From sequence record PQ615101: 64,000 bases of DNA. One strand, given 5' to 3'. This document shows positions 1-64,000 of the stretch, piece by piece; the first letter of the stretch is position 1, and each line of letters begins with the position of its first letter. The position numbers and the translations under genes are program-made. Under the pieces are notes generated by a model. That model was not told the origin of the DNA, made no database searches, and worked only from the letters and a program-made list of their open reading frames with translations. The DNA comes from Shigella phage SP21535.

Positions 1-212
1 TCTAAACGGGGAACCTCTCTAGTAGACAATCCCGTGCTAAATGTTCTTTTGAACTAAATGCCTAACGACTATCCCTTTGGGGAGTAGGGTCAAGTGACTC
101 GAAACGATAGACATCTTGCTTCATCAAGATGGAGATATAGTCTGATCTGTATGGTGACATGCAGCTGGATATAATTCCGGGATAAGATTAACGACCTTAT
201 CTGAACATAATG
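1..212 (+). other. Group I intron, 3' portion (td intron); 5' end lies outside the window; no endonuclease ORF in the visible part
   Basis: Shares core blocks with the nrdB intron in this window (tagggtcaagYgactcgaaa, gatatagtctgRtctg, gaacataaYg at the 3' end). Ends in G at 212, immediately before in-frame thymidylate synthase C-terminal coding sequence. Confidence 0.75.
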
Positions 213-798: not shown

Positions 799-1065
799 TT
801 GATGTTAATATTCACCGTGGTACATTTTGGGGGAAATTACGTCGGTAAAGATGCTGGCAGCCTCCCGGCTGCCATTGAATTATTCAAAAAAGATTTTATA
901 CGTCGAATTAAATCCGGAGAAATAACTAAAGCACATTTAGAGCCTTTACGTGGAATGAGGCTAGGATGCACATGTAAACCAAAGCCGTGTCATGGTGATA
1001 TAATAGCTCATATAGTTAACCGATTGTTTAAAGACGATTTTCAAGTTGAGGACTTATGCAATTAA
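799..1065 (+). CDS. Hypothetical protein (88 aa), Cys/His-containing
   Basis: ORF ending in overlap with the nrdA start. Confidence 0.45.
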   Translation: MMLIFTVVHFGGNYVGKDAGSLPAAIELFKKDFIRRIKSGEITKAHLEPLRGMRLGCTCKPKPCHGDIIAHIVNRLFKDDFQVEDLCN

Positions 1066-3320
1066 TTAATGTTATCAAAAGTAGTGGTGTTTCTCAAAGC
1101 TTTGACCCGCAAAAAATTATTAAAGTTTTATCTTGGGCAGCTGAAGGAACATCTGTAGATCCTTATGAATTATATGAAAATATTAAATCATATCTCCGTG
1201 ATGGAATGACAACTGATGACATTCAGACTATTGTCATTAAGGCTGCTGCGAATTCTATTTCGGTTGAAGAGCCTGATTATCAATACGTAGCTGCACGCTG
1301 TTTAATGTTCGCTCTTCGTAAGCATGTTTATGGGCAGTATGAACCACGTTCATTTATTGACCATATTTCTTACTGCGTAAATGAAGGTAAATATGACCCT
1401 GAATTATTGTCAAAATATTCAGCAGAAGAAATTACATTTTTAGAATCAAAAATTAAGCACGAACGGGATATGGAATTTACTTATTCCGGGGCGATGCAAT
1501 TAAAAGAAAAATATCTAGTTAAAGATAAAACCACTGGTCAAATTTATGAAACTCCACAGTTTGCATTTATGACTATTGGAATGGCATTGCATCAAGATGA
1601 ACCTGTTGATAGATTAAAACACGTTATCCGTTTTTATGAAGCAGTATCTACTCGACAGATTTCATTACCAACTCCTATTATGGCTGGTTGCCGTACTCCA
1701 ACTCGGCAGTTTAGTTCATGCGTTGTTATTGAGGCAGGTGATTCGCTGAAGTCTATCAATAAGGCTTCTGCTTCAATTGTTGAATATATCTCCAAACGCG
1801 CTGGAATTGGTATTAACGTTGGTATGATTCGTGCCGAAGGTTCTAAGATTGGCATGGGTGAAGTACGCCATACTGGTGTTATTCCTTTTTGGAAACATTT
1901 TCAGACTGCAGTTAAATCATGCTCACAGGGTGGAATTCGTGGCGGCGCTGCTACTGCTTATTATCCTATTTGGCATTTGGAAGTTGAAAATCTTCTCGTT
2001 TTGAAAAATAACAAAGGCGTAGAAGAAAACCGCATTCGTCATATGGATTATGGCGTTCAACTGAATGATTTGATGATGGAACGATTCGGAAAGAACGACT
2101 ACATTACCTTGTTCAGTCCACATGAAATGGGTGGCGAGCTTTATTATTCTTATTTTAAAGACCAAGACCGTTTCCGTGAATTATATGAAGCCGCAGAAAA
2201 AGACCCTAATATTCGTAAAAAGCGTATTAAAGCCCGTGAACTGTTTGAATTGCTCATGACTGAACGCTCAGGAACAGCAAGGATTTATGTACAGTTCATT
2301 GATAATACGAATAACTATACTCCGTTTATTCGTGAAAAGGCACCTATTCGTCAGAGTAACTTGTGTTGTGAAATTGCTATTCCAACAAATGATGTGAATA
2401 GTCCTGATGCTGAAATTGGATTGTGTACCCTTAGCGCATTTGTGTTGGATAACTTCGATTGGCAAGACCAAGATAAAATTAATGAATTGGCAGAAGTTCA
2501 AGTTCGTGCTCTTGATAATCTGTTGGATTACCAAGGATATCCAGTTCCTGAAGCAGAAAAAGCTAAAAAGCGTCGAAATCTTGGTGTAGGTGTTACTAAC
2601 TATGCAGCTTGGCTGGCAAGTAACTTTGCTTCTTATGAAGATGCTAACGATTTAACACATGAACTATTTGAGAGATTGCAGTATGGACTCATTAAAGCAT
2701 CCATTAAGCTCGCCAAAGAAAAAGGACCTTGCGAATATTATTCAGACACTCGTTGGTCTCGAGGCGAATTACCTATCGACTGGTACAATAAAAAGATTGA
2801 CCAAATCGCAGCTCCAAAATACGTTTGTGACTGGTCGTCGCTGCGGGAAGACCTTAAGCTCTTTGGCATCCGTAATAGCACATTATCAGCACTTATGCCA
2901 TGTGAGTCATCTTCCCAAGTTTCCAACAGTACAAACGGTATCGAGCCTCCACGTGGACCAGTATCTGTTAAAGAATCAAAAGAGGGTTCCTTTAATCAAG
3001 TCGTGCCCAATATTGAACATAACATAGACCTATATGATTATACATGGAAATTAGCTAAGAAAGGTAATAAACCTTATCTTACGCAGGTAGCTATTATGCT
3101 GAAATGGGTATGTCAATCAGCTTCAGCGAATACATATTATGACCCGCAGATTTTTCCAAAAGGAAAGGTTCCAATGTCTGTAATGATTGATGACATGCTA
3201 TACGGATGGTATTATGGCATTAAAAACTTTTATTATCATAATACCCGCGATGGTTCTGGTACTGATGATTATGAAATAGAAACTCCTAAAGCAGATGATT
3301 GTTCATCCTGTAAATTATGA
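1056..3320 (+). CDS. nrdA: Ribonucleoside-diphosphate reductase alpha subunit
   Basis: 754 aa; N-terminal ATP-cone region, active-site Cys/Glu-containing core and C-terminal CxxC tail (DDCSSCKL) typical of class Ia NrdA. Confidence 0.95.
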   Translation: MQLINVIKSSGVSQSFDPQKIIKVLSWAAEGTSVDPYELYENIKSYLRDGMTTDDIQTIVIKAAANSISVEEPDYQYVAARCLMFALRKHVYGQYEPRSFIDHISYCVNEGKYDPELLSKYSAEEITFLESKIKHERDMEFTYSGAMQLKEKYLVKDKTTGQIYETPQFAFMTIGMALHQDEPVDRLKHVIRFYEAVSTRQISLPTPIMAGCRTPTRQFSSCVVIEAGDSLKSINKASASIVEYISKRAGIGINVGMIRAEGSKIGMGEVRHTGVIPFWKHFQTAVKSCSQGGIRGGAATAYYPIWHLEVENLLVLKNNKGVEENRIRHMDYGVQLNDLMMERFGKNDYITLFSPHEMGGELYYSYFKDQDRFRELYEAAEKDPNIRKKRIKARELFELLMTERSGTARIYVQFIDNTNNYTPFIREKAPIRQSNLCCEIAIPTNDVNSPDAEIGLCTLSAFVLDNFDWQDQDKINELAEVQVRALDNLLDYQGYPVPEAEKAKKRRNLGVGVTNYAAWLASNFASYEDANDLTHELFERLQYGLIKASIKLAKEKGPCEYYSDTRWSRGELPIDWYNKKIDQIAAPKYVCDWSSLREDLKLFGIRNSTLSALMPCESSSQVSNSTNGIEPPRGPVSVKESKEGSFNQVVPNIEHNIDLYDYTWKLAKKGNKPYLTQVAIMLKWVCQSASANTYYDPQIFPKGKVPMSVMIDDMLYGWYYGIKNFYYHNTRDGSGTDDYEIETPKADDCSSCKL

Positions 3321-4929
3321 TATAATTACCACAAGGATGTGGTTAACTAAGAATAACGCTATGTTTGATAATATATACAAAAACGGAAAGTTTCTTCCAT
3401 TTGGAGAAGAAAAACTTAAATCTAGACTAACAGAAGAAGATAAAGCTCTTCTAACTGATGGAATAGATTTTAAGCTCAATGTGTTCCAAATTATGGAAGG
3501 CATTGACATTAACGATCTAAAATGTGCAGTTTGTGGAAATTTCATTTCTCTGAAAACAGCAAAGAAACGTGTATTTCCAGCAACATGTAGTAAATCCTGC
3601 GCAGGGATATTTTTCGCGGATAAGAGAATTCAAAGCCGTGATACAAATTTTGGCGGAAAAGAAAAATATAAAAAATATTTGTCTGAACTTCAACACAAAA
3701 ATTCTTTAGAAAAATATGGAACAACTCATCAAAAAATTTCAAGAAATAAAAATAGAAAAACTTTAATTGAACGATATGGGGTAACGCATAATTCACAATT
3801 AGAAAGTGTGAAAGAAGCGAGAAAAGTTATAGAAAACGGTAAATCAGTTGATATTCTGCATTCTAGAAAATCTCGCGAAAAATCTAAGAAGACTAAATTA
3901 AATTGGACTGAAGAATATAAGGCATCGTTATATTCATCTATAGGAAAATCTATTAAAAATAACGGTCATATTAATCATGATATACTAGATAAAATCAATT
4001 ACAAAATTTCTATAGAAGAACTACAACAATTAGCAAATTGTTCTCGGATGACGGCTTATAGAGCTCTTTCATCCAAAGGACTAATTGACGTTCATTATAC
4101 TCAAAGTTCTATAGAGCAATTCATTTTAGATCTAGGATTTGATTGCGTAGAAACTAGAAAAATTATTCCTCCGTATGAATTAGATATTTACATTCCTGAG
4201 AAAAAATTGGCTATAGAATACGATGGAATTTATTGGCATTCTAGCGGGTCAAAGGAAACAGATAAAATTAAAGAAACTTATCATTTGATGAAGACAGAGA
4301 TGTGTGAAGCACAAGGAATTCAATTACTTCACATCTTCGAAAATGAATGGATTGATGATACAAAAAGAGAGATCTGGAAATCCATTATAAAGCATAAATT
4401 AGGATTATCAGAAAGAATACCAGCCCGAAAATGCAAAGCGCGTTTTGTTAATAAGGATGAGGCAAAAGAATTTATTAATAAGAATCATCTTCAAGGATTT
4501 TGCTCGGGAGCTCATACGTATAAAGGACTTTATTACAATAATGAGTTAGTTCAAATTATTTCTATCGGTAAATCTAGATATAGCACAGGTGATGAACTTT
4601 TAAGGATGTGTTCAAAATTGGGGGTTTGTGTTGTAGGAGGAGCCTCAAAATTATTAAAAGGAATTAATTGTCTATCTTATGGCAATCGAAGATGGTGCAG
4701 TACATTATCAAATGTTTATGACTCTGTCATGGAATTTAGTCATATCTCTGAGCCATGTTATTGGTACGTCGATAAAGGAGAGGTATTTCACCGCTCAAGC
4801 TATATGAAACATAAGCTTAAAAACAAGCTTAAAAATTATGATGATACAATAACTGAAGTAGAAAATTGTTATGCAAATGGTCTTAGAAGAATCTGGGACT
4901 GTGGAAATTTAGTTTACAGGACAAAATAA
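3295..4929 (+). CDS. Large endonuclease-like protein (Hef-like candidate) between nrdA and nrdB; start uncertain (alternative ATG at 3337)
   Basis: 530-544 aa ORF with Cys-rich N-terminal segment (CAVCGNF...ATCSKSC), repeated KYG-T-TH / RYG-V-TH modules, and a C-terminal segment YELDIYIPEKKLAIEYDGIYWHS resembling a PD-(D/E)xK / Vsr-like nuclease motif. It occupies the nrdA-nrdB slot where T-even phages carry mobile endonuclease genes. Confidence 0.6.
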   Translation: MIVHPVNYDIITTRMWLTKNNAMFDNIYKNGKFLPFGEEKLKSRLTEEDKALLTDGIDFKLNVFQIMEGIDINDLKCAVCGNFISLKTAKKRVFPATCSKSCAGIFFADKRIQSRDTNFGGKEKYKKYLSELQHKNSLEKYGTTHQKISRNKNRKTLIERYGVTHNSQLESVKEARKVIENGKSVDILHSRKSREKSKKTKLNWTEEYKASLYSSIGKSIKNNGHINHDILDKINYKISIEELQQLANCSRMTAYRALSSKGLIDVHYTQSSIEQFILDLGFDCVETRKIIPPYELDIYIPEKKLAIEYDGIYWHSSGSKETDKIKETYHLMKTEMCEAQGIQLLHIFENEWIDDTKREIWKSIIKHKLGLSERIPARKCKARFVNKDEAKEFINKNHLQGFCSGAHTYKGLYYNNELVQIISIGKSRYSTGDELLRMCSKLGVCVVGGASKLLKGINCLSYGNRRWCSTLSNVYDSVMEFSHISEPCYWYVDKGEVFHRSSYMKHKLKNKLKNYDDTITEVENCYANGLRRIWDCGNLVYRTK

Positions 4930-5604
4930 TGAGTACAGTTTTTAATACTAAACAGGTTGATGTTTTAAAAGAACCTATGTTTTTTGGTTCAGGTCTTGGA
5001 ATTGCGCGTTATGATATTCAACGACATAGGGTATTTGAAGAACTTATTGAACGTCAGCTCTCGTTTTTCTGGCGTCCTGAAGAAGTAAACTTGATGATGG
5101 ATGCTACTCAATTTAATAAGCTTCCTCAGTATCAACAAAATATTTTTACTAATAATCTGAAGTATCAATCATTACTTGATAGTATTCAAGGTCGTGCGCC
5201 GTCTGCTGTACTTATGCCATTGCTTTCAGACCCAAGCCTTGATACATGGGTTGCTACATGGACTTTTAGTGAAACTATTCACAGTCGTTCATATACTCAT
5301 ATCATGCGAAATCTTTATACTGATCCGTCAAAGGTATTTGATGAGATTGTATTAGATGAAGCTATCATGAAACGTGCTGAATCCATTGGACGTTATTATG
5401 ATGACGTTCTGATTAAAACCCGTGAATGGGAAAATGCTAAAGAATTTGTAGAACTAGCTAAAGAATCTCCTGATGCCGACTTTCGTTTAAACCGGGCTAT
5501 TAAGCAAGAAGCCGAAGCTAAACGTGCTTTAATGAAATCTCTTTACCTCTGTTTGCACGTTATTAATGCCTTAGAAGCTATTCGTTTTTATGTATCTTTT
5601 GCGT
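4929..5604 (+). CDS. nrdB: Ribonucleotide reductase beta subunit, exon 1
   Basis: Translation ends ...ALEAIRFYVSFA, the conserved NrdB helix; the frame is interrupted by the intron after gcgT at 5604. Confidence 0.85.
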
Positions 5605-5904
5605 AAAATGCGCCTTTAAACGGTAACGTTTATCGAAAACTCCTTTAATTGCTGGAAAGTCCTTTATAGGAAAACTAGCAGCCAAGGTTTTGCTTGCACC
5701 TTTAATTAGTATAATATGATTATACTTTTAAGAGGATGCACAATTGCAAAGCAAGGTTCAACGACTAGTCTTCGGACGTAGGGTCAAGCGACTCGAAATG
5801 GGGAGAATCCCTCTGGGATTGTGATATAGTCTGGTCTGCATAGTAATATGTAGCAGTTCATAAGAGAACGGGTTGAGAATTAGCGAGCTCAATCGAACAT
5901 AACG
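5605..5904 (+). other. Group I intron in nrdB, ORF-less (about 300 nt)
   Basis: Joining 5604 to 5905 restores the conserved NrdB sequence (VSFA-C-TFNFHKNMEIMEGNAK). The intron ends in G, shares core motifs with the td intron, and has no ORF of 60 aa or more. Confidence 0.8.
5688..5716 (+). promoter_or_regulatory. Middle-promoter-like element inside the nrdB intron (MotA-box-like ttTGCTTgcA, then TATAAT)
   Basis: Motif match only. It is followed by ATG and a 21-codon mini-ORF, possibly a remnant of a lost intron ORF. Confidence 0.25.
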
Positions 5905-6407
5905 GTACCTTTAACTTCCATAAGAACATGGAAATCATGGAAGGTAATGCCAAAATTATGAAGTTCATTGCACGTGATGAGCAACTTCATCTTAAAGGCA
6001 CTCAATATATTATTCGTCAACTTCAATCCGGTACTGATGGCGATGAATGGGTTAAAATTGCTCAAGAGTGTGAACAAGAAGCAGTTGATATTTTCATGGA
6101 AGTTAATCGCCAAGAAAAAGATTGGGCAGTTCATTTATTTAAAGATGGCGATGTTCCTGGATTAAATACAAATAGCATGTGGAGCTTTATTGATTACTTA
6201 ACTGTATCTCGTATGAAACAGTGTGGTCTTCCATGCCCAATTACCGATGCTCCGATTAAACATCCATATCCTTGGATTCGTGAATATCTTAATTCTGATA
6301 ATGTTCAATCCGCGCCACAAGAAGTAGAACTGTCATCTTACCTTGTTGCACAGATTGATAATGATGTTGATGATAAAGTTATGATGAGTTTTAAAAAATA
6401 CTTTTAA
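5905..6407 (+). CDS. nrdB: Ribonucleotide reductase beta subunit, exon 2
   Basis: In-frame continuation MEGNAKIMKFIARDEQLHLKGTQYIIRQL..., the radical/diiron-site C-terminal half of NrdB. Confidence 0.85.
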
Positions 6408-43457: not shown

Positions 43458-47618
<4,161 letters not shown>

Positions 47619-55830: not shown

Positions 55831-56835
55831 TTAAAATGTAAACAGAATATTGATTTCTTCTGTTTGATCCATTGCCATAATAATAGGTGGCCTATTTTCC
55901 ATATAAATCATTTCGCCCGAATGCCTCATTAAATCTTCCGGATCATAATAATCCTTTTCAGCTTTAACGTTTGGGTCATTTGGATGAGCTTTAGCTTCAA
56001 GAGGATTCGTGATTATTGATATTTGTCTAAATCCTTTATTTCCCGGCAATGCAGCTTCCGGAAAATAAACTGAATCTAAATATGCTTTAAAACGGATAGT
56101 ATTTGCCTTAACACGGTAAATTAATCCAAAATCATCTTGTTGCCAAGTGAGGTTATCTTCATACCCCCATCTAGTCGGGTCTTCTTTTAATTCTTCCGGC
56201 CAAGGAACCACGATATATTCATTCGTGCATCTATTTATAGATACATCAGGTGGAATCTCAAAAAGATATTCCCAAACATATCCGTCGCCGGGTTCGATTG
56301 TTCCTTCCGCGTCTCCTCGACCTTCAGGAGGAGTCATTGACCTAACAGAAGGAGTCCATTTTCCACCTAACTTAAGGCATTCATCCTTATTAGTTAAAGA
56401 CTCAATTGAACACATTCCTGTGTCAGGAACATCTAAACAACGATATACTAACCAGCCTGCGCCTGATTCAGTAGCATTGTAAGGAGCTGAGTTACACACT
56501 ACAATATCGTTAATTCTAAATGTGTATGGATCTGGATATCTAGTATCTCCCCAATCTCGACGAGGAATAACTGCATCAAGCATAGATGGAAGAACCTTTA
56601 CAGTTCCCATCATATGCGTCCACATGTCAGTTACGCCTAATACAGAATCAGTAGGATAAGGTGGAGCAAAGCCCACCTCATTTTCATTTGATGACCACGG
56701 TTCTGATCTTCCAAATGTGATAAAGATAGTGTTTTTATCCGGACCACTTCCAATTGAATTATAAAAATTCAACATTTTTTCTGTTCTAAATTTTGAAGTA
56801 ACTATCGCACGATAGATAACACTTGAATCATTCAT
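55831..56835 (-). CDS. 8: Baseplate wedge subunit
   Basis: 334 aa, synteny. Confidence 0.9.
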   Translation of the reverse strand: MNDSSVIYRAIVTSKFRTEKMLNFYNSIGSGPDKNTIFITFGRSEPWSSNENEVGFAPPYPTDSVLGVTDMWTHMMGTVKVLPSMLDAVIPRRDWGDTRYPDPYTFRINDIVVCNSAPYNATESGAGWLVYRCLDVPDTGMCSIESLTNKDECLKLGGKWTPSVRSMTPPEGRGDAEGTIEPGDGYVWEYLFEIPPDVSINRCTNEYIVVPWPEELKEDPTRWGYEDNLTWQQDDFGLIYRVKANTIRFKAYLDSVYFPEAALPGNKGFRQISIITNPLEAKAHPNDPNVKAEKDYYDPEDLMRHSGEMIYMENRPPIIMAMDQTEEINILFTF

Positions 56836-59800
56836 CTATTTTAACCTGTGTTGGATTTTCAGGGTCTCTTGGATTTCCTATATTATCTTTTAGACGTTTA
56901 TTAACTAAATCCCTAAATTGTGCAAATGTTGTTCCAGATGCATCGAATAAAGGACTCATTAATTTACGTCGTTCAGACGGCAATTGACCTTGAAATATTG
57001 AATTATTATTTTCAGCATTATAGTCATCAGGAAGAGGATATTTTACACCAGCCATTGGGCCAGGTTCATAAATTGCTTCGCCTGTTACTGAATCATGCTC
57101 AATTTCGCCAGTTGGAGTCAATTTAGCTACTCTATCAGCATATTCAGTAGGCAATCCAGAATCCCATTTATAGTTTTTGTATTTATTAATTATAGTCTCT
57201 GTATGTTTAAGAGTTAAACCAACATTAATAAACATCGTTAAAAGAGTAATTGCTATAAATCCAAATCCTACTGGATGAACAAAACGAATAACGTCAGATT
57301 TCCAGCGGGAAGAAGGTAAATTGGATTTAATTTTCATTACATAATATGATCTACTTCTATTAATATAGTCTATGTTATTTTGAAGCAAATCCTTTCCTTT
57401 AACCCCGCGAATAATTTCGCCTTCGAAACTAGGGAGTCTTTCTGCTTTAACTTCTTGACCGGCAATTAATCTTCCCAAAAGATTATGAATAGTTACGGTC
57501 CATTGCAATTTACCATTAGAATAGCTTCTTTCTATATAAGTAACATTACATCTTCCTGTAGCTGTATAAATCGTTTGTCCTACTAAGTCTTCGGTCAAAG
57601 AATCAGATTGAACGATTATATCATATTCAGTACCAGCCCCAGATTCAATTTCAATTTCAACTTCTTCATTATAAAGAACTTTAAAAAGAAATTTGTATGA
57701 TGCTTCAATTCCTTTAGTGGAATAAAAATCATAGCTACGTGATTCAAAAAATCTTGCAACAGCATCGCGTTTGTCAGCATTTAAATAAATGTTTCTTTTA
57801 TATATCTCTGACCACAAATATTCCCACGCATGCTCTTCTCGCGGATATTGGTTACGAATTAAATTTCGTAAATTATTATACTGAGTTCCATATCCATCAG
57901 AAAGATACTGAATATATGCTTCGCAGAATGCCTCAAAATTAGAATCCTGTAGCAAATAAGAATCAGGCATCATTGTGCCAATCAATGGTCTTAAATCAGG
58001 ATCAGCTAATCCATGCTCTTCTTCCGGGGACCAAGGAGTTTCACGCTCTTGGTTTTGTAAAAATGCTTTTAAAAATATTCCAGTTGGCTTCCAAATTATT
58101 TCAACCGTGTCTCTCACTCGATAGTTAAAATCATAGTAAGAAATTATTTCACCAGAAGACTTATAAAAAAGCATCCCAGACGCATATTTTTTAAATCCCG
58201 TGAATTTAACATTTGGCATTACTATCGTGCAATCACCATCATCCCAATATTCATGAACTAATCTATCTGGCGATGTTTCCGGAATATTTTCTATAACTTT
58301 AGTGTATTTTAAATCAGCATAAACTACTACAGCTCTATCAGAGTTGTTTATCCAACAGCGTGTGTTAGATTTTTTAGACCAGTTAAAGAATGGTTCTGCA
58401 TAGTATTTCATCGGCTGAGGCGTAAAAGTTTCCCAATCAGATTTTTCGTCTGCTATAAATGCCATCATATGATAATGCTTATCAGCTAGCCATTCACGAG
58501 GAAATTCATATTTAACAGCACCGATTAACTGATATTTCGTTGCAGTTTCAGGGTCATTAACAATGTTATCACTTAAAAATTTAAAATTACTCGAAGACAG
58601 AGAAACTAATTTACCATCAGTTGACATATTCGCATACCCTGGTTGAATGCGTCTTCTTTCTTCTTCAGTGTTGCCAAAAACTCTTTTCCACGTTTTTGTG
58701 TCGTGATTTAAAACATATATTCCTTTATCAGCAGAATCAATTATTTTTGATGTTCTAGGATTAGCATTTAATGTTTCAACTTCACCAATAATAAGAGCAA
58801 AAACTTTATCACCGATAGAATCCATTTTATAGCATACTGCTTTAGGATTTCCGGTTATAGTCATTGTATCAGGCTCAAAAAGCCTTTCCGAATATGTTGG
58901 AGATAATGGATCAGAATCTATAGGTGCATTACTCGTTTTTATGTATCTAACTTTATCTCTGGCGACAACGTAAATGTAATCATCGGTGCAAGTAATAGCT
59001 TCTGCAATGCGATATACATTCGCTGGCAAAGTTGCGTAAGTGGCAAAAATTTCTACATCAAATCCTAAATGTAATTGGTCGCCAAGTTTAGCGAATGTTA
59101 TATCTTGAGAACTAAATCTGACATCATCAGCTGACCATCTAACATCAGTAGATTTGCGGCCATAGAAAATCTTGTCGTATCCTAGAACGTATGTTGTGTT
59201 CGCAGATTGGTAATATACTGTCTTAGATAAAGGATATCCTACGCGGTCATTGAAGAGCTTTACAGCTTTCCAGGTTTGTCCTTTATCATTGGATACTTTA
59301 ACTACAGGTTGATAACGCTCAAAAAGATATAGAATCCCTTCTGATTCCATCAAATAAACTCGGTTAATATCCTTACATACTTGCTGAATAGAACCCTGTA
59401 TTTCATGGTACTCATTTTCACCAATAATAAAATTACTTATTGATGAAACATCAACATATGATGGGCTGAACTGAAATGATTCATTCATCAATGCAGCCAT
59501 TATAGTGTCATTATTAAAATTGACATAATCAGAATTATTAAGAGTAAATTTTTCCTGAATGAATTTATTAGCTAATTGCATTTCAATCATGTTTTGAAAT
59601 GTATAAGCGTTTGTAGCAAAAGTTTCAAACTCTTCGGTATAAATCCAATCAGACTGCTCAAAATCCTGCGCAGCTGTAGCTACTCTAATAATGTACGATG
59701 TCAATGGATTAGCATTATCAAAAAAGAAGCTGTTATTTGCAGTATATCCTAAGTTAATCCATCTGTATTGATTACTCGGGAGATTTTCCCCCGAGTTTGT

Positions 59801-59926
59801 TTTTGTCTCAGCGATTTCTACAAAATAGTAGAAATTAGCACCAACGTCATCCCAGCGTACTTGCACCTGATTTGCGGATAACTTGGAAATTCTGAGACTA
59901 GTGACTGAAGGTGCTTTTACTGTCAT
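56828..59926 (-). CDS. 7: Baseplate wedge initiator
   Basis: 1032 aa, synteny. Confidence 0.9.
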   Translation of the reverse strand: MTVKAPSVTSLRISKLSANQVQVRWDDVGANFYYFVEIAETKTNSGENLPSNQYRWINLGYTANNSFFFDNANPLTSYIIRVATAAQDFEQSDWIYTEEFETFATNAYTFQNMIEMQLANKFIQEKFTLNNSDYVNFNNDTIMAALMNESFQFSPSYVDVSSISNFIIGENEYHEIQGSIQQVCKDINRVYLMESEGILYLFERYQPVVKVSNDKGQTWKAVKLFNDRVGYPLSKTVYYQSANTTYVLGYDKIFYGRKSTDVRWSADDVRFSSQDITFAKLGDQLHLGFDVEIFATYATLPANVYRIAEAITCTDDYIYVVARDKVRYIKTSNAPIDSDPLSPTYSERLFEPDTMTITGNPKAVCYKMDSIGDKVFALIIGEVETLNANPRTSKIIDSADKGIYVLNHDTKTWKRVFGNTEEERRRIQPGYANMSTDGKLVSLSSSNFKFLSDNIVNDPETATKYQLIGAVKYEFPREWLADKHYHMMAFIADEKSDWETFTPQPMKYYAEPFFNWSKKSNTRCWINNSDRAVVVYADLKYTKVIENIPETSPDRLVHEYWDDGDCTIVMPNVKFTGFKKYASGMLFYKSSGEIISYYDFNYRVRDTVEIIWKPTGIFLKAFLQNQERETPWSPEEEHGLADPDLRPLIGTMMPDSYLLQDSNFEAFCEAYIQYLSDGYGTQYNNLRNLIRNQYPREEHAWEYLWSEIYKRNIYLNADKRDAVARFFESRSYDFYSTKGIEASYKFLFKVLYNEEVEIEIESGAGTEYDIIVQSDSLTEDLVGQTIYTATGRCNVTYIERSYSNGKLQWTVTIHNLLGRLIAGQEVKAERLPSFEGEIIRGVKGKDLLQNNIDYINRSRSYYVMKIKSNLPSSRWKSDVIRFVHPVGFGFIAITLLTMFINVGLTLKHTETIINKYKNYKWDSGLPTEYADRVAKLTPTGEIEHDSVTGEAIYEPGPMAGVKYPLPDDYNAENNNSIFQGQLPSERRKLMSPLFDASGTTFAQFRDLVNKRLKDNIGNPRDPENPTQVKIDE

Positions 59927-61905
59927 TGTGATATAGGCTCCAAATCGATAGTTAAGTATTGTGGACGTAAGTCATTTTCAAATACAATCAGTGAACCATC
60001 GCGAGTAAAGATAACATCATCGGTTGGGTCAGAATATAATTCAATAGTCTGAACCTCAAATTTATCGGATGTTAAATTAATTTTAGCGATATTCCAATAA
60101 ATCATGTCAGCTGGATAATTTATTTCACCGATAACATAATATTTGTCACGTCCATCAGAATTTGCTAATTTGTTAAAATCGTTGCCTGTATACGGCTGAA
60201 TGTTTTCATTTTCTGTAACATCACCCGAAGCAAATGGACCAATAATAACTTTACCGATTCCTTTAGAATCTCGGTCTGTTGATACTATGCGAACGTCATA
60301 TAATACATCTTCTTCTAAACCAGTATCAGGATTTACAACCTTTCGTCCGGAATTAAATGAAAACGTATTAGATTCCATAGAACGATCTTTTATTTGATTA
60401 TTGTATTTAATACCTGCTTCAGGCGTTTTATAGAAGTTTTGTACTTCACGAACAATTTGAATTGTCGCTGATGAACCAATGATAGAATGATCTGCATCAT
60501 CTACATATGTCAACATCTTAGATTTAGCGAAAGATGAGTTAAAAATTTCTACGTCTTCGGTATAATAACGATCAATTTTATCAATTATTTGACCTTCAAG
60601 CCACTGTTCGGATTCTTGCAGCTTATTTAAAGCATATGTGACTTTTAAATTAGTCTTAATAAAAAGATAATTAGGAGAAATAATTGATGGCGTAATAGGA
60701 GCTAAATTATAGTCTTTGAGATAATTTTTAATATCTTCGCGCTGTACAGTAGTTAAATATAGTCCCGATTTAGGTTTAGCAGCAATAAATGCATAACCAG
60801 GTTTAGTAGAATCAGTGAAAGTCTGAACTGCCTGAATAATAGAACCAAATCTCTCTGAAACGAATGTATCATAGTCAGTCGCAGTTACGCAGCGTTGCTG
60901 GGTTTCACGTTTAATAGTACCCAATTCGCGAATACGTTCAATATCTTCTGGATCACCGCCGCCATCTGCTCCAACAAAATCTGGGTCATCGTTTGGGTTT
61001 TCATTAATATTGATGACAGTTATATTTGTTAATGTATCCGCGTATGAAAATCCGACTGCACCATTCGCATCTGCACCGTTAGTGCTGATGTACTCAATGA
61101 CAATCGTAGAGTTCTGAGTAGGTTTAAGACCTCCAATATAATTAGCGGTCAATGCTCCTTCTGCCGCGTTAACAGAAATCTCACCTTCACCAAAATAAAA
61201 TTCAGTATTTCCATCAATAGTTTCACGCATATAGTAAATCGTTGATGTTGAACCAGCATGAACCATTGACTTTCTCGTCCAGTTAATCCATTCCGCTCCA
61301 TCAACATATAATTTAACCTGGTTTCTATCAATATTTTTATCATAAATGATAATAGGTGTTAATTTATCATAAATGATTTCAGTTCTTACTATACGTCCCT
61401 GAGCTAATTTTAAACGCGGAAAATATTGGTTATTTTTATCGCGAATAGCAATAACATCTTCGGTAGATACAAAGTTATAAGGATTAACTGAAGTATCTTT
61501 TGCATATGCTAAAAAGCGAGTACCACGAGGAATAGTAATGTAATTTCTATTCAATGCGTCGGTACATGTTAACATAATTTCGGTCTGCGCAGCGGATTTT
61601 GAAGTAGGTAAATATCCGTTATCTTGTGCAGCTTGAACAACTGAACTTCGTAAGTTAGCAGTACGCATAAAGCTTTCATACACGGCAGCATTACCAAATT
61701 GTTGAATGTACAATGTATTATAAGCCAAAAGGTCACACAGAACGTTTAATCTTGAGCCTTCAAAATCATAATCCAAAAATTCATTTTGGCCATTAAGCCA
61801 TTCAATGAGGTTTTGTTTTATTTCAGCAAACGTACCCCCGACGAATATCTCGGGAATAGCATTTGCTGTTCTTGTTAATTGATAATTTACAGGGGTATTT
61901 GCCAT
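59923..61905 (-). CDS. 6: Baseplate wedge subunit
   Basis: 660 aa, synteny. Confidence 0.9.
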   Translation of the reverse strand: MANTPVNYQLTRTANAIPEIFVGGTFAEIKQNLIEWLNGQNEFLDYDFEGSRLNVLCDLLAYNTLYIQQFGNAAVYESFMRTANLRSSVVQAAQDNGYLPTSKSAAQTEIMLTCTDALNRNYITIPRGTRFLAYAKDTSVNPYNFVSTEDVIAIRDKNNQYFPRLKLAQGRIVRTEIIYDKLTPIIIYDKNIDRNQVKLYVDGAEWINWTRKSMVHAGSTSTIYYMRETIDGNTEFYFGEGEISVNAAEGALTANYIGGLKPTQNSTIVIEYISTNGADANGAVGFSYADTLTNITVININENPNDDPDFVGADGGGDPEDIERIRELGTIKRETQQRCVTATDYDTFVSERFGSIIQAVQTFTDSTKPGYAFIAAKPKSGLYLTTVQREDIKNYLKDYNLAPITPSIISPNYLFIKTNLKVTYALNKLQESEQWLEGQIIDKIDRYYTEDVEIFNSSFAKSKMLTYVDDADHSIIGSSATIQIVREVQNFYKTPEAGIKYNNQIKDRSMESNTFSFNSGRKVVNPDTGLEEDVLYDVRIVSTDRDSKGIGKVIIGPFASGDVTENENIQPYTGNDFNKLANSDGRDKYYVIGEINYPADMIYWNIAKINLTSDKFEVQTIELYSDPTDDVIFTRDGSLIVFENDLRPQYLTIDLEPISQ

Positions 61906-61913
61906 TTTAAATC

Positions 61914-62207
61914 CTATTTAATGAATACTTTAGATGATGCCTGAGCCACAGTATCACCGCATGATATTGGATCAGCCATTTGAACAGCTTTCTTTCCAGT
62001 GACATATACCTTAGAAGTTCTGGGTTGTGTCACTCCGCCATGTGTTTCATATGGCTTTTTAATTTCTGTATGTTCTGTAATTGGATCACCTGCTACGAGA
62101 ACAGCAATTCCTCCAGTGAATACTTTACTTTGTGTAGCATTCACAACTGTTGGAGGCCACGCTTCATGGCCAGCAGTAACACACTTATCATAACTTAATC
62201 CTGACAT
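61914..62207 (-). CDS. 5.4: PAAR-repeat spike-tip protein
   Basis: 97 aa, [46 protein letters not shown]... PAAR-like fold. Confidence 0.85.
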
Positions 62208-62785
62208 TTATAATACCCCGCTTTAACTCGCCCCTTTAAGGTACTATAATTTATATTAAGAGCTTTAGCTGCGATTTTAATACTTTTATATAAAACGCCG
62301 TTGATAATAATAGATTTAGCATTAGGGGCTATTTTGCCATACATTGGGTTATTGGCGCCGCACATCTTCGGAGTTTTACCTCTAGGCCCTCTAGGCCCTC
62401 TTTTTCTAGACGATTTAATGCTAATTTTCAATCTAGTTTCACGCGAATGAGATTTACCGTAAAATCCATTTTTAACACCCGCTGTGCTATGTTTTGGGAA
62501 GCCACCGATACCACCTAGTTTCATATTATAAGTTTTCTCAGATTTAACAAATTCCTCTGTGACTATTTCTGCCTCTGCGTCATACATAGCTTTTTCAGAT
62601 TCAAAGAATTTTATAATATGCTTATAAAAATTATCTATGCCATATTTTTTAATGGCATTTTTAATGGCAACGCCAGAACCCATATACCCATCATCCAAAT
62701 TTGAAGTTTTATGGACACCTACATAAATTTTTCCCGTTGTTTTATTAGTTATTGAATACAAATAAAAATATTTATGGCCTCTCAT
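62195..62785 (-). CDS. GIY-YIG homing endonuclease (Seg-like)
   Basis: 196 aa; GIY-YIG core ([20 protein letters not shown] ... YNMKLGG), NUMOD3-like segment ([16 protein letters not shown]) and C-terminal HTH-like region ([16 protein letters not shown]). Confidence 0.8.
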
Positions 62786-63308
62786 ACACGTAGCTTCTCA
62801 ATTTATTAGCCCAACGACTCCAATTTCCAACTATAGTTTTAGTATAATTTTTAACGAGAGTTTTTCTTACTGGAGCAGGAGGATCTGTTGGTTCAGTAGT
62901 ATCAGAAGATGACCTAGAATTACTGCCAGAACCCCCAGATTCACTTTGTTCTTGGTAGTCATATATTAATGTTACTTCATAAGTGAATGTTTTCTGGAGG
63001 TTTTGAGGAGCTTTCCATAAATATAACTGAGTATTAGAATCAGTTGGAAGGTCTTCCCATGAAGCAGCAGTTTTAAATTCATTATCTAAACGATATTTCA
63101 ATGCGTCATTTCCAAATCCAAATACAGATTCATACGTTCCATATAAACGATTTTCTTCTACTAAAACCCCAGGAGTTTCTTCGTAACTAGTTATATTTAT
63201 AGATACTAACGTTTCACCTGTTTCTAATTGAGCGGTAAAGGTGACGTCGATAGAAGAACCTTCCATGGATTCTCCTAAATCAGCGCTCATTGGAAGTATA
63301 TTAGCCAA
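62772..63308 (-). CDS. Hypothetical protein (178 aa) with a Ser/Gly-rich linker
   Basis: ORF overlapping both neighbours. Confidence 0.6.
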   Translation of the reverse strand: MANILPMSADLGESMEGSSIDVTFTAQLETGETLVSINITSYEETPGVLVEENRLYGTYESVFGFGNDALKYRLDNEFKTAASWEDLPTDSNTQLYLWKAPQNLQKTFTYEVTLIYDYQEQSESGGSGSNSRSSSDTTEPTDPPAPVRKTLVKNYTKTIVGNWSRWANKLRSYVYERP

Positions 63309-64000
63309 TTGTTGAATTCTCTAATGATGTAAATTTATAATCACATTTTTTCAAAGCTTTTAAAATTGCGTTATAACTTACATCCGGGAGGTCATGTTCA
63401 ATTGCTTTTTCTCTAAACCATTTGTATTTCTGTGGATGTGGTTTTCCCAAAACCTCCCAAAGTTTTTTGACTTTTTCTATACTAATCCAAGGTTCAACTG
63501 ATCTTAGTTTTTTATTTCTAGCATCTAATCTCGATTTTCTTATCAAAGGATCATTCCATGATTGTTTCGTTCCTTCTATTTTTCCTGGATGATTGATTAA
63601 TTTATTTCTGTATTCATCGGATTTCCATAAAGATTTAACGGTATTAGAAATACGAATTTTTAATGTTGGGTCATTTTCAAAAGCAGTTTTCATCGCATTA
63701 CTCATTTTCTTTCGATATTCTGGTGATGCGCATCTTTCTTTGTTTATTTTAGATATTTTCTCTGAAAATTCTTTAGTTGACGTTGATTTAGCTAATGCCT
63801 TCAATTGAGCTTTCCTATATTCAGGATTAGACCACATTCTCTTCAAATCTTCGGATGAAAAACCATCACCGCCGGATTTTATATTGGTACATAGAATGTC
63901 AGATGATTTATATTTCGAAATCCAATACCTTTCTCTTAAATTAAGAATTTCATAAGTAGAAACAAATTCAATTATTTCAAAATCTATTTTATAACCAGGT
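63301..64000 (-). CDS. Endonuclease-associated repeat protein, C-terminal part (5' end outside window)
   Basis: Frame stays open to the window edge. It carries four spaced repeats of W-x-x-P-E-Y-R-x-K-(M/L) (WSNPEYRKAQL, CASPEYRKKMS, WKSDEYRNKLI, WNDPLIRKSRL), as seen in DNA-binding modules of phage homing endonucleases. Confidence 0.5.
   Translation of the reverse strand, partial: PGYKIDFEIIEFVSTYEILNLRERYWISKYKSSDILCTNIKSGGDGFSSEDLKRMWSNPEYRKAQLKALAKSTSTKEFSEKISKINKERCASPEYRKKMSNAMKTAFENDPTLKIRISNTVKSLWKSDEYRNKLINHPGKIEGTKQSWNDPLIRKSRLDARNKKLRSVEPWISIEKVKKLWEVLGKPHPQKYKWFREKAIEHDLPDVSYNAILKALKKCDYKFTSLENSTIG

Follow-up and report, generated by a model that had tools for sequence, protein, structure and literature searches.

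The gene 5-5.4 region and its segC insertion

By megablast, the end of the DNA analyzed here (64,000 nucleotides in all, hereafter the window) was assigned to Tequatrovirus, with 99.0% identity to phage CJY920 and 98.3% to phage LH2. The final 7 kb of the window is the T-even baseplate cluster, which is encoded on the minus strand and comprises gp7, gp6, gp5.4, segC, gp5.1, and an ORF running off the window edge that we call seg288. The genes are as follows:

56828-59926, minus: gp7, T-even baseplate cluster
59923-61905, minus: gp6, T-even baseplate cluster
61914-62207, minus: gene 5.4, PAAR spike-tip protein of 97 aa (Pfam PAAR_motif, E 9e-10; labelled 5.4 in relatives)
62195-62785, minus: segC, complete ORF of 196 aa (Pfam, phrog_314, and identity to T4 SegC)
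62772-63308, minus: gene 5.1 (phrog_1168, E 2e-73; gp5.1 in the annotation of RB18, T6, and vB_SsoM_113)
63301-64000, minus: seg288 (T6ncORF142 type), 3' 699 nt, that is, the last 232 codons and the stop; open at the window edge

The product of gene 5.1 has 178 aa if translated from a TTG (63308) or 164 aa from an ATG (63266), and annotators use either start. It contains SESGGSGSNSRSSS and, as the first-pass annotation said, a Ser/Gly-rich linker; its gene lies between the two endonuclease genes. An Rfam search of the endonuclease region gave no match, and short plus-strand ORFs within 61980-63808 were rejected, being without support and overlapping the minus-strand genes.

The first endonuclease gene, initially described as a complete GIY-YIG Seg-type endonuclease, is exactly that: an intact ORF whose product is 95.4% identical to T4 SegC over its full length and 100% identical to the SegC proteins of LH2 and CJY920. 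With phrog_314 ("homing endonuclease") the protein has an E value of 2e-54. In Pfam, its scores for NUMOD3 (32.4 bits) and SegE_GIY-YIG (27.0 bits) exceed the cut-offs, and those for the I-TevI_DNA-bd and GIY-YIG models fall slightly short. Its features are:

62206-62769, minus: 564-nt segC insertion, missing from the segC-less alleles of RB18 and T6 (six-genome alignment)
62219-62344, minus: C-terminal I-TevI-like DNA-binding region of SegC
62420-62482, minus: NUMOD3 of SegC
about 62498-62767, minus: GIY-YIG core of SegC

The gene starts inside the last 14 nt of 5.1 and stops inside the first 13 nt of 5.4. T6-type records align to the query as two pieces separated by a gap of exactly 62206-62769, the insertion is bounded by a direct repeat, ATAAAT (62206-62211 and 62770-62775), and the empty site reads CCATAAAT up to the junction and GTCAGG beyond it.

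T4 SegC is an active, mobile, free-standing GIY-YIG enzyme, encoded between 5.1 and 5.3, for which upstream promoters are needed (PMC2988022); it is reported to cleave the endonuclease-less allele site-specifically and to leave a 2-nt 3' overhang (PMC2988022, Table 1). The ORF at 62195-62785 is the SegC orthologue at the T4 locus, the 5.1/5.4 junction, inserted at the identical point and built alike from a GIY-YIG domain, NUMOD3, and a C-terminal helix-turn-helix. The N-termini differ, being MRGHKY in the window and MPMQDHKY in T4. Beside segC, the end of 5.1 has the empty-allele sequence in the window (...SYVYERP and stop), whereas T4 has about nine substitutions in the last 25 nt (...KYAYARP and stop). 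Because this end keeps the empty-allele sequence here, segC and 5.1 overlap by 14 nt rather than by the 20 nt reported for T4 (PMC2988022).

A further interrupted gene was noticed elsewhere in the window. Gene 17 (large terminase), which is uninterrupted in a relative, is fractured by an atypically split intein. After IYIDE, its N-terminal part (45420-46313) adds 41 residues, the first of them Cys, and then stops; next comes a 206-aa ORF encoding a TnsA-like nuclease domain (44834-45454; Pfam E 8e-10); and in the C-terminal part (43461-44846) 107 extra residues ending in ...SHN precede CAFIPNF. The consensus atypically split intein CatC (PDB 6DSL_B) matches this extension at E 8e-12. The split layout is common to 17 records, where it is annotated merely as two terminase genes and an endonuclease. 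One metagenomic gp17-like terminase broken at the same unusual point was reported in 2009 (PMC2677866).

The partial ORF at the window edge

Within the window, seg288 opens with PGYKIDFEIIEFVSTYEILNLRERYWISKYKSSDILCTNIKSGGDG, the C-terminal half of a GIY-YIG core. Two features bear on its origin and catalytic domain:

63310-64000, minus: in-window part of the seg288 cassette (junction alignments)
63862-63999, minus: C-terminal half of the GIY-YIG core, including ERYWISKY (Glu) and CTNIKSGGDG (Asn)

For the upstream junction and the 56 codons outside the window, the sequence was taken from relatives that are 97-99% identical over a 2.1-kb stretch. The LH2 copy of the ORF encodes 288 aa and starts MKKSNTVQFRYIYKTTVTNPKGLVRVYIGKH; the missing 56 codons in the window are expected to begin MKKSNTVQFRYIYK. 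The first-pass annotation had placed the catalytic N-terminus beyond the window, and this holds for the first 56 residues, with GIY and YIG, but not for the C-terminal half of the core, with Glu and Asn, which is encoded inside it.

The first-pass annotation had also proposed searching beyond position 64000 for HNH or GIY-YIG motifs, and had conceded that the ORF might turn out to belong to a non-nuclease structural gene. Its position beside gene 5 is the one point in favor of taking it for the end of a structural gene, such as gene 5, or for an HNH-type enzyme. In LH2, CJY920, and T6, however, gene 5 stops upstream of a separate seg288 ATG with its own ribosome-binding site (18 nt before the ATG in LH2 and CJY920), the N-terminus of seg288 in the relatives bears GIY-YIG motifs, and Pfam searches returned no HNH match. 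The relatives refute both forms of this reading, to which we attach practically no weight. Judged from its sequence, seg288 is a GIY-YIG nuclease gene, neither HNH nor structural.

Assignment to this family came from profiles and conserved positions. Pfam searches with the partial ORF and with the full 288-aa protein found no nuclease domain, just a weak match to GerD, while phrog_314 was matched at E 1e-25. A word-indexed search of 5.8 billion proteins gave 13 homologues (clusters), of which eight match SegE_GIY-YIG and four GIY-YIG in Pfam. Invariant across all 13 are YIY (residues 11-13), YIG (27-29), Y43-x-G45-S46-G47, Glu79, and Asn95. Glu79 and Asn95, both encoded inside the window, align with Glu75 and Asn90 of I-TevI, and the family profile matches the I-TevI catalytic domain (1LN0) over residues 5-93 with E 2.3e-6. 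The spacing from GIY to YIG is 13 residues, compared with about 10-11 in the superfamily, because of a 4-residue insertion in the T6-type clade. An AF2 model of modest quality (pLDDT 63.6; about 63-83 in the N-terminal domain) has a beta-beta-alpha-beta-alpha domain, in keeping with the three-stranded sheet and flanking helices of the GIY-YIG fold, followed by helices only; a Foldseek search of the model against the PDB found nothing significant.

Some of these observations could be read as decay, with seg288 a degenerate or domesticated endonuclease that binds DNA through its repeats, does not cut, and persists by vertical descent or as a regulator. The Pfam GIY-YIG models stay below significance, the GIY and YIG motifs are separated by an insertion, relatives are very few in the word-indexed search, and the alignment offers no equivalent of I-TevI Arg27, there being no invariant Arg between YIG and Glu. 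Against this, about 30 phage records have the ORF intact at 98-100% identity, and homologues that share only about 30% identity show no variation at the GIY, YIG, Glu, and Asn positions. Arg27 is also absent from SegC, and since this experimentally active enzyme carries the same Y-x-G-S-G in place of the Arg motif, the absence seems to be characteristic of the Seg subgroup, not a sign of decay. A footprint of transfer between genera, described below for phage ZQ3, argues for past mobility as well. We therefore regard loss of activity as unlikely and infer that the seg288 product cleaves DNA.

Origin of seg288 as a local duplication of segC was rejected, because identity between the two proteins reaches only 28% and does not extend past the catalytic core. 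Among the papers searched, we found none naming or characterizing the T6-type seg288 enzyme.

The repeat array of seg288

Downstream of the nuclease domain, seg288 encodes the following repeats:

63487-63834, minus: array (residues about 103-230) of 6-7 helical repeats, each of about 17 residues, presumed DNA-binding
63808-63834, minus: WSNPEYRKA, degenerate repeat copy
63706-63732, minus: CASPEYRKK, degenerate repeat copy
63601-63627, minus: WKSDEYRNK, degenerate repeat copy
63532-63558, minus: WNDPLIRKS, degenerate repeat copy

The first-pass annotation had counted four W-x-x-P-E-Y-R-x-K repeats. Four degenerate copies are indeed present, a number reached in none of 20,000 residue shuffles, but none of the four fits the strict pattern; the unit consensus in seg288 is P-E-Y-R-x-K-x-S-x-x-x-K-x-x-W-x-x. 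In the AF2 model each repeat unit forms one helix starting at the Pro.

A search with the repeat region alone (63304-63861, minus) against 1.84 billion representative proteins gave 517 matches at E 0.001 or better; most of the 150 matches listed have two to seven matched places per protein. The consensus of the best 88 of the 517 is ...S-x-x-x-K-x-x-W-x-x-P-E-Y-R-x-K... with a 17-residue period, so the strict motif originally proposed is that of the wider repeat family. Pfam domains in these best 88 proteins include GIY-YIG (20), LEM-3-type GIY-YIG (2), HNH (6), HNH_3 (4), MTES_1575 (5), DUF559 (4), Vsr (2), TnsA-like (1), and endonuclease I (1), together with Mom (4), MucR (3), and NUMOD3 (5); the Pfam model that picks up the repeat itself is GerD, in 49 of the 88. 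The repeat is thus fused in other proteins to GIY-YIG, HNH, and PD-(D/E)xK nuclease domains, which bears out the earlier description of such repeats as typical of endonuclease DNA-binding modules. Because fusion to unrelated nuclease folds is expected of such modules, the repeat is likely a nuclease-associated DNA-binding domain, and the array in seg288 presumably binds DNA.

In its pattern the repeat resembles NUMOD3 (S-x-E-x-R-x-K-I-S). Both stand in tandem after nuclease domains and have in common the pattern [S/P]-E-x-[RK]-x-K-[ILM]-S-x-x-x-K, and in two homologues, P0008 and P0011, the NUMOD3 units fall in register with the repeat when aligned. What sets the repeats apart is their P-E-Y-R signature together with a conserved Trp. 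The NUMOD3 model scores 12.2 bits on them (E 0.18), below its cut-off of 20.4; identity with NUMOD3 was rejected on this ground, leaving a likeness in pattern and position only.

The repeat module merits formal definition as a family. A wider reading takes it for a widespread, uncurated nuclease-associated DNA-binding module, exchanged among GIY-YIG, HNH, and PD-(D/E)xK enzymes as well as Mom, MucR, and sigma-70 proteins and caught in Pfam by the GerD model alone, and holds in addition that the gene pair around 5.1 hitch-hikes, driving one 5.1 allele through T-even populations. As a whole this proposal is conceivable, and we advance it tentatively.

Distribution, transfer, and proposed homing

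Gene order in T4 and relatives identifies the second ORF as an insertion between gene 5 and gene 5.1. Four arrangements were found:

T4 type: gp5, 5.1, segC, 5.4 (T4 and others)
T6 type: gp5, seg288, 5.1, 5.4 (T6 and others)
Both: gp5, seg288, 5.1, segC, 5.4 (among deposited genomes, only CJY920, LH2, T4_ev151, and Manna)
Neither: gp5, 5.1, 5.4 (about 85% of an evenly sampled ranking)

T4 has segC alone here, as the first-pass annotation stated, and its suggestion that the second gene is an additional mobile insertion is borne out: seg288 is absent from T4 and RB18, present in T6, delimited by sharp junctions, and found at the same site in a Mosigvirus. Among about 494 close records, a base that includes RefSeq/GenBank duplicates, seg288 occurs in about 30 and segC in about 35 at 90% or higher protein identity. 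Carriers of seg288 also include ACG-C40, PYPS2T, and vB_SsoM_113. Occupancy of both sites is rare but present in public genomes.

The seg288 cassette, of about 901 nt, lies at the gene 5/5.1 junction and is absent from T4- and RB18-type genomes. In the six-genome alignment both this insertion and that of segC have sharp junctions at gene boundaries, identical in all carriers. At the end of gene 5 the seg288 cassette takes the place of 13 nt, changing GGATCGAGGATTGACATTGGCTAA (GSRIDIG and stop) to GGTAGCCGTATAGACGTAGGTTTATAA (GSRIDVGL and stop), and the last 9 nt of the seg288 ORF (63301-63309, ATTGGCTAA) are the original gene 5 end. Upstream of the seg288 ATG, the cassette of the relatives has a GAGGTGA ribosome-binding site and TATAAATA, which fits the T4 late-promoter consensus.

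An 86%-identical gene is present at exactly the same site in the Mosigvirus vB_EcoM-ZQ3. No other carrier was found among the phage records that resemble ZQ3 in this region, which number about 120 at 95% or higher identity. In ZQ3 the Mosigvirus-type flank gives way about 10 nt to the left of the cassette and resumes about 18 nt to its right. Between these points the bases next to the cassette belong to the Tequatrovirus, or donor, type, and the Mosigvirus intergenic spacer is 11 nt short. Between the genera, nucleotide identity is 82% for seg288, compared with 70.7% for the gene 5 part and 69.3% for the 5.1 part. Donor-type flanks and a gene more conserved than its surroundings argue for site-specific lateral transfer of seg288, and the short donor tracts suggest that the enzyme would cut near its insertion point. 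ZQ3 provides a clean footprint of transfer between genera with very short donor flanks. Beside the classical segC site, the gene 5/5.1 junction probably serves as another homing site.

Could the two genes instead have traveled together? At a spacing of 0.5 kb, cutting by either enzyme would carry along the other gene and the 5.1 allele, and seg288, 5.1, and segC might then form a composite island moving as one unit by co-conversion. The window, LH2, and CJY920 do share 5.1 polymorphisms unseen in T4, T6, and RB18 (for example, TTTAGATAATGAA rather than TTTAGGCGATGAA), their SegC proteins are identical, and free-standing T4 endonucleases are known to co-convert hundreds of bases (PMC2988022). 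But for each gene there are about 26-31 records that lack the other, and their co-occurrence is at chance level (4 joint occurrences observed, 2.1 expected; Fisher p 0.15, not significant), recent common ancestry of a few genomes explains the shared 5.1 allele equally well, and the transfer to Mosigvirus took just 10-18 nt of flank. Movement as a unit thus appears improbable. Our preferred reading, which we hold with considerable confidence, is of a Tequatrovirus baseplate cluster in which two free-standing GIY-YIG homing endonuclease genes, inserted independently, flank gene 5.1.

We infer the same mechanism for both enzymes, the experimental proof being that for T4 SegC only. On co-infection with a relative lacking the gene, the enzyme would bind the empty site through its C-terminal DNA-binding region: NUMOD3 and an I-TevI-like helix-turn-helix in SegC, an array of 17-residue helical repeats in the second enzyme. 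The GIY-YIG domain would then cut both strands in or near that site, and for seg288 the cut in the empty gene 5/5.1 allele would be expected near ...ATTGATGGATCGAGGATTGACATTGGCTAA. Phage recombination would repair the break from the carrier genome, copying in the gene and some of its flank. The carrier itself would be protected, its site being split by the insertion, and the seg288 cassette may add to this by recoding the last seven codons of gene 5; these codons offer a testable target for characterizing the T6-type enzyme. The doubly occupied arrangement would be a rare recombinant.

Endonuclease genes around 5.1 are an ordinary feature of T4-like phages. The present locus has little importance beyond annotation, in that the identity of the edge ORF is fixed as a GIY-YIG Seg-like gene. 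The "seg-like" ORF of T6, T6ncORF142, is the same gene as seg288, 98-100% identical and at the same gene 5/5.1 site, although T6 carries it without segC; seg288 is uncharacterized, yet already annotated in T6. Cutting near the insertion point by the seg288 product would contrast with SegF and SegG. I-TevI is encoded within an intron (the T4 td intron) and binds DNA via a zinc finger, a minor-groove helix, and a helix-turn-helix, whereas seg288 is free-standing and its presumed DNA-binding region is the repeat array.

A split large-terminase gene

Gene 17, encoding the large terminase (43461-46313, minus strand), is broken at its Walker B motif (IYIDE|C), and the interrupting sequence is, on sequence grounds, an atypically split intein, its two parts lying on either side of a free-standing nuclease ORF:

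45423-45545, minus strand: intein N-part, 41 aa
44834-45454, minus strand: TnsA-like/endonuclease-I-like nuclease ORF, free-standing, between the gene 17 halves
44526-44846, minus strand: intein C-part, 107 aa

The C-part matches CatC, a consensus atypical split intein (6DSL_B; E = 8e-12). This layout is common to 17 phage records, in which the annotation reads only "terminase large subunit" (twice) and "endonuclease"; the same kind of arrangement has been described in a single metagenomic terminase case (Dassa 2009; PMC2677866).

Group I introns and the nrdA-nrdB interval

Two group I introns (Rfam RF00028) were identified in the window, both on the plus strand, the first of them presumably belonging to td. 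The second divides nrdB into 4929-5606 and 5928-6407, and upstream of nrdB, following nrdA (1056-3320), lies an ORF of 544 aa.

1-164, plus strand: 3' part of a group I intron, truncated by the window start
3295-4929, plus strand: 544-aa ORF between nrdA and nrdB
5588-5853, plus strand: ORF-less group I intron in nrdB

The only Pfam match to the 544-aa ORF is a sub-threshold one of 22 bits to MTES_1575, a restriction-endonuclease-like family, and the W-x-x-P-E-Y-R repeat was absent from it. In T4, mobE is located in the nrdA-nrdB region (Table 1 of PMC2988022). The ORF may be another free-standing nuclease gene.

Surroundings of seg288 and the helical repeat

In T6 (record L006), two genes of oriE, repEA and repEB, are annotated inside gene 5 (4694-4828 and 5795-5932), at a distance of roughly 0.5-1.7 kb from the cassette that carries seg288, the second, Seg-like GIY-YIG endonuclease gene; a homing endonuclease gene therefore adjoins a replication origin. 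A short motif recurs in this neighborhood:

63194-63201, minus strand: TATAAATA inside gene 5.1, fitting the T4 late-promoter consensus

In relatives a second copy immediately precedes the start of seg288 and overlaps the new stop of gene 5 (about 6286-6293 in L001), and across the whole window the motif occurs 14 times on the minus strand and four times on the plus strand.

The Pfam model for the GerD central core (PF17898) matches 49 of the 88 nuclease-associated repeat proteins (best E = 4e-23). Either GerD has the same helical repeat, or the model picks up an unrelated, uncurated nuclease-associated module.

The gene 5.1-segC boundary compared with T4

In the window and in the close relatives LH2 and CJY920, gene 5.1 ends as it does in empty alleles (...SYVYERP, then stop) right up to the segC insertion. 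T4, in contrast, has approximately nine substitutions in the final 25 nt of gene 5.1 beside segC, and its gene 5.1 ends ...KYAYARP, then stop (compare 62770-62800 of the window). The SegC N-terminus consequently differs as well, being MRGHKY in these three phages and MPMQDHKY in T4, and the divergent gene 5.1 end may be relevant to self-protection of the SegC target.
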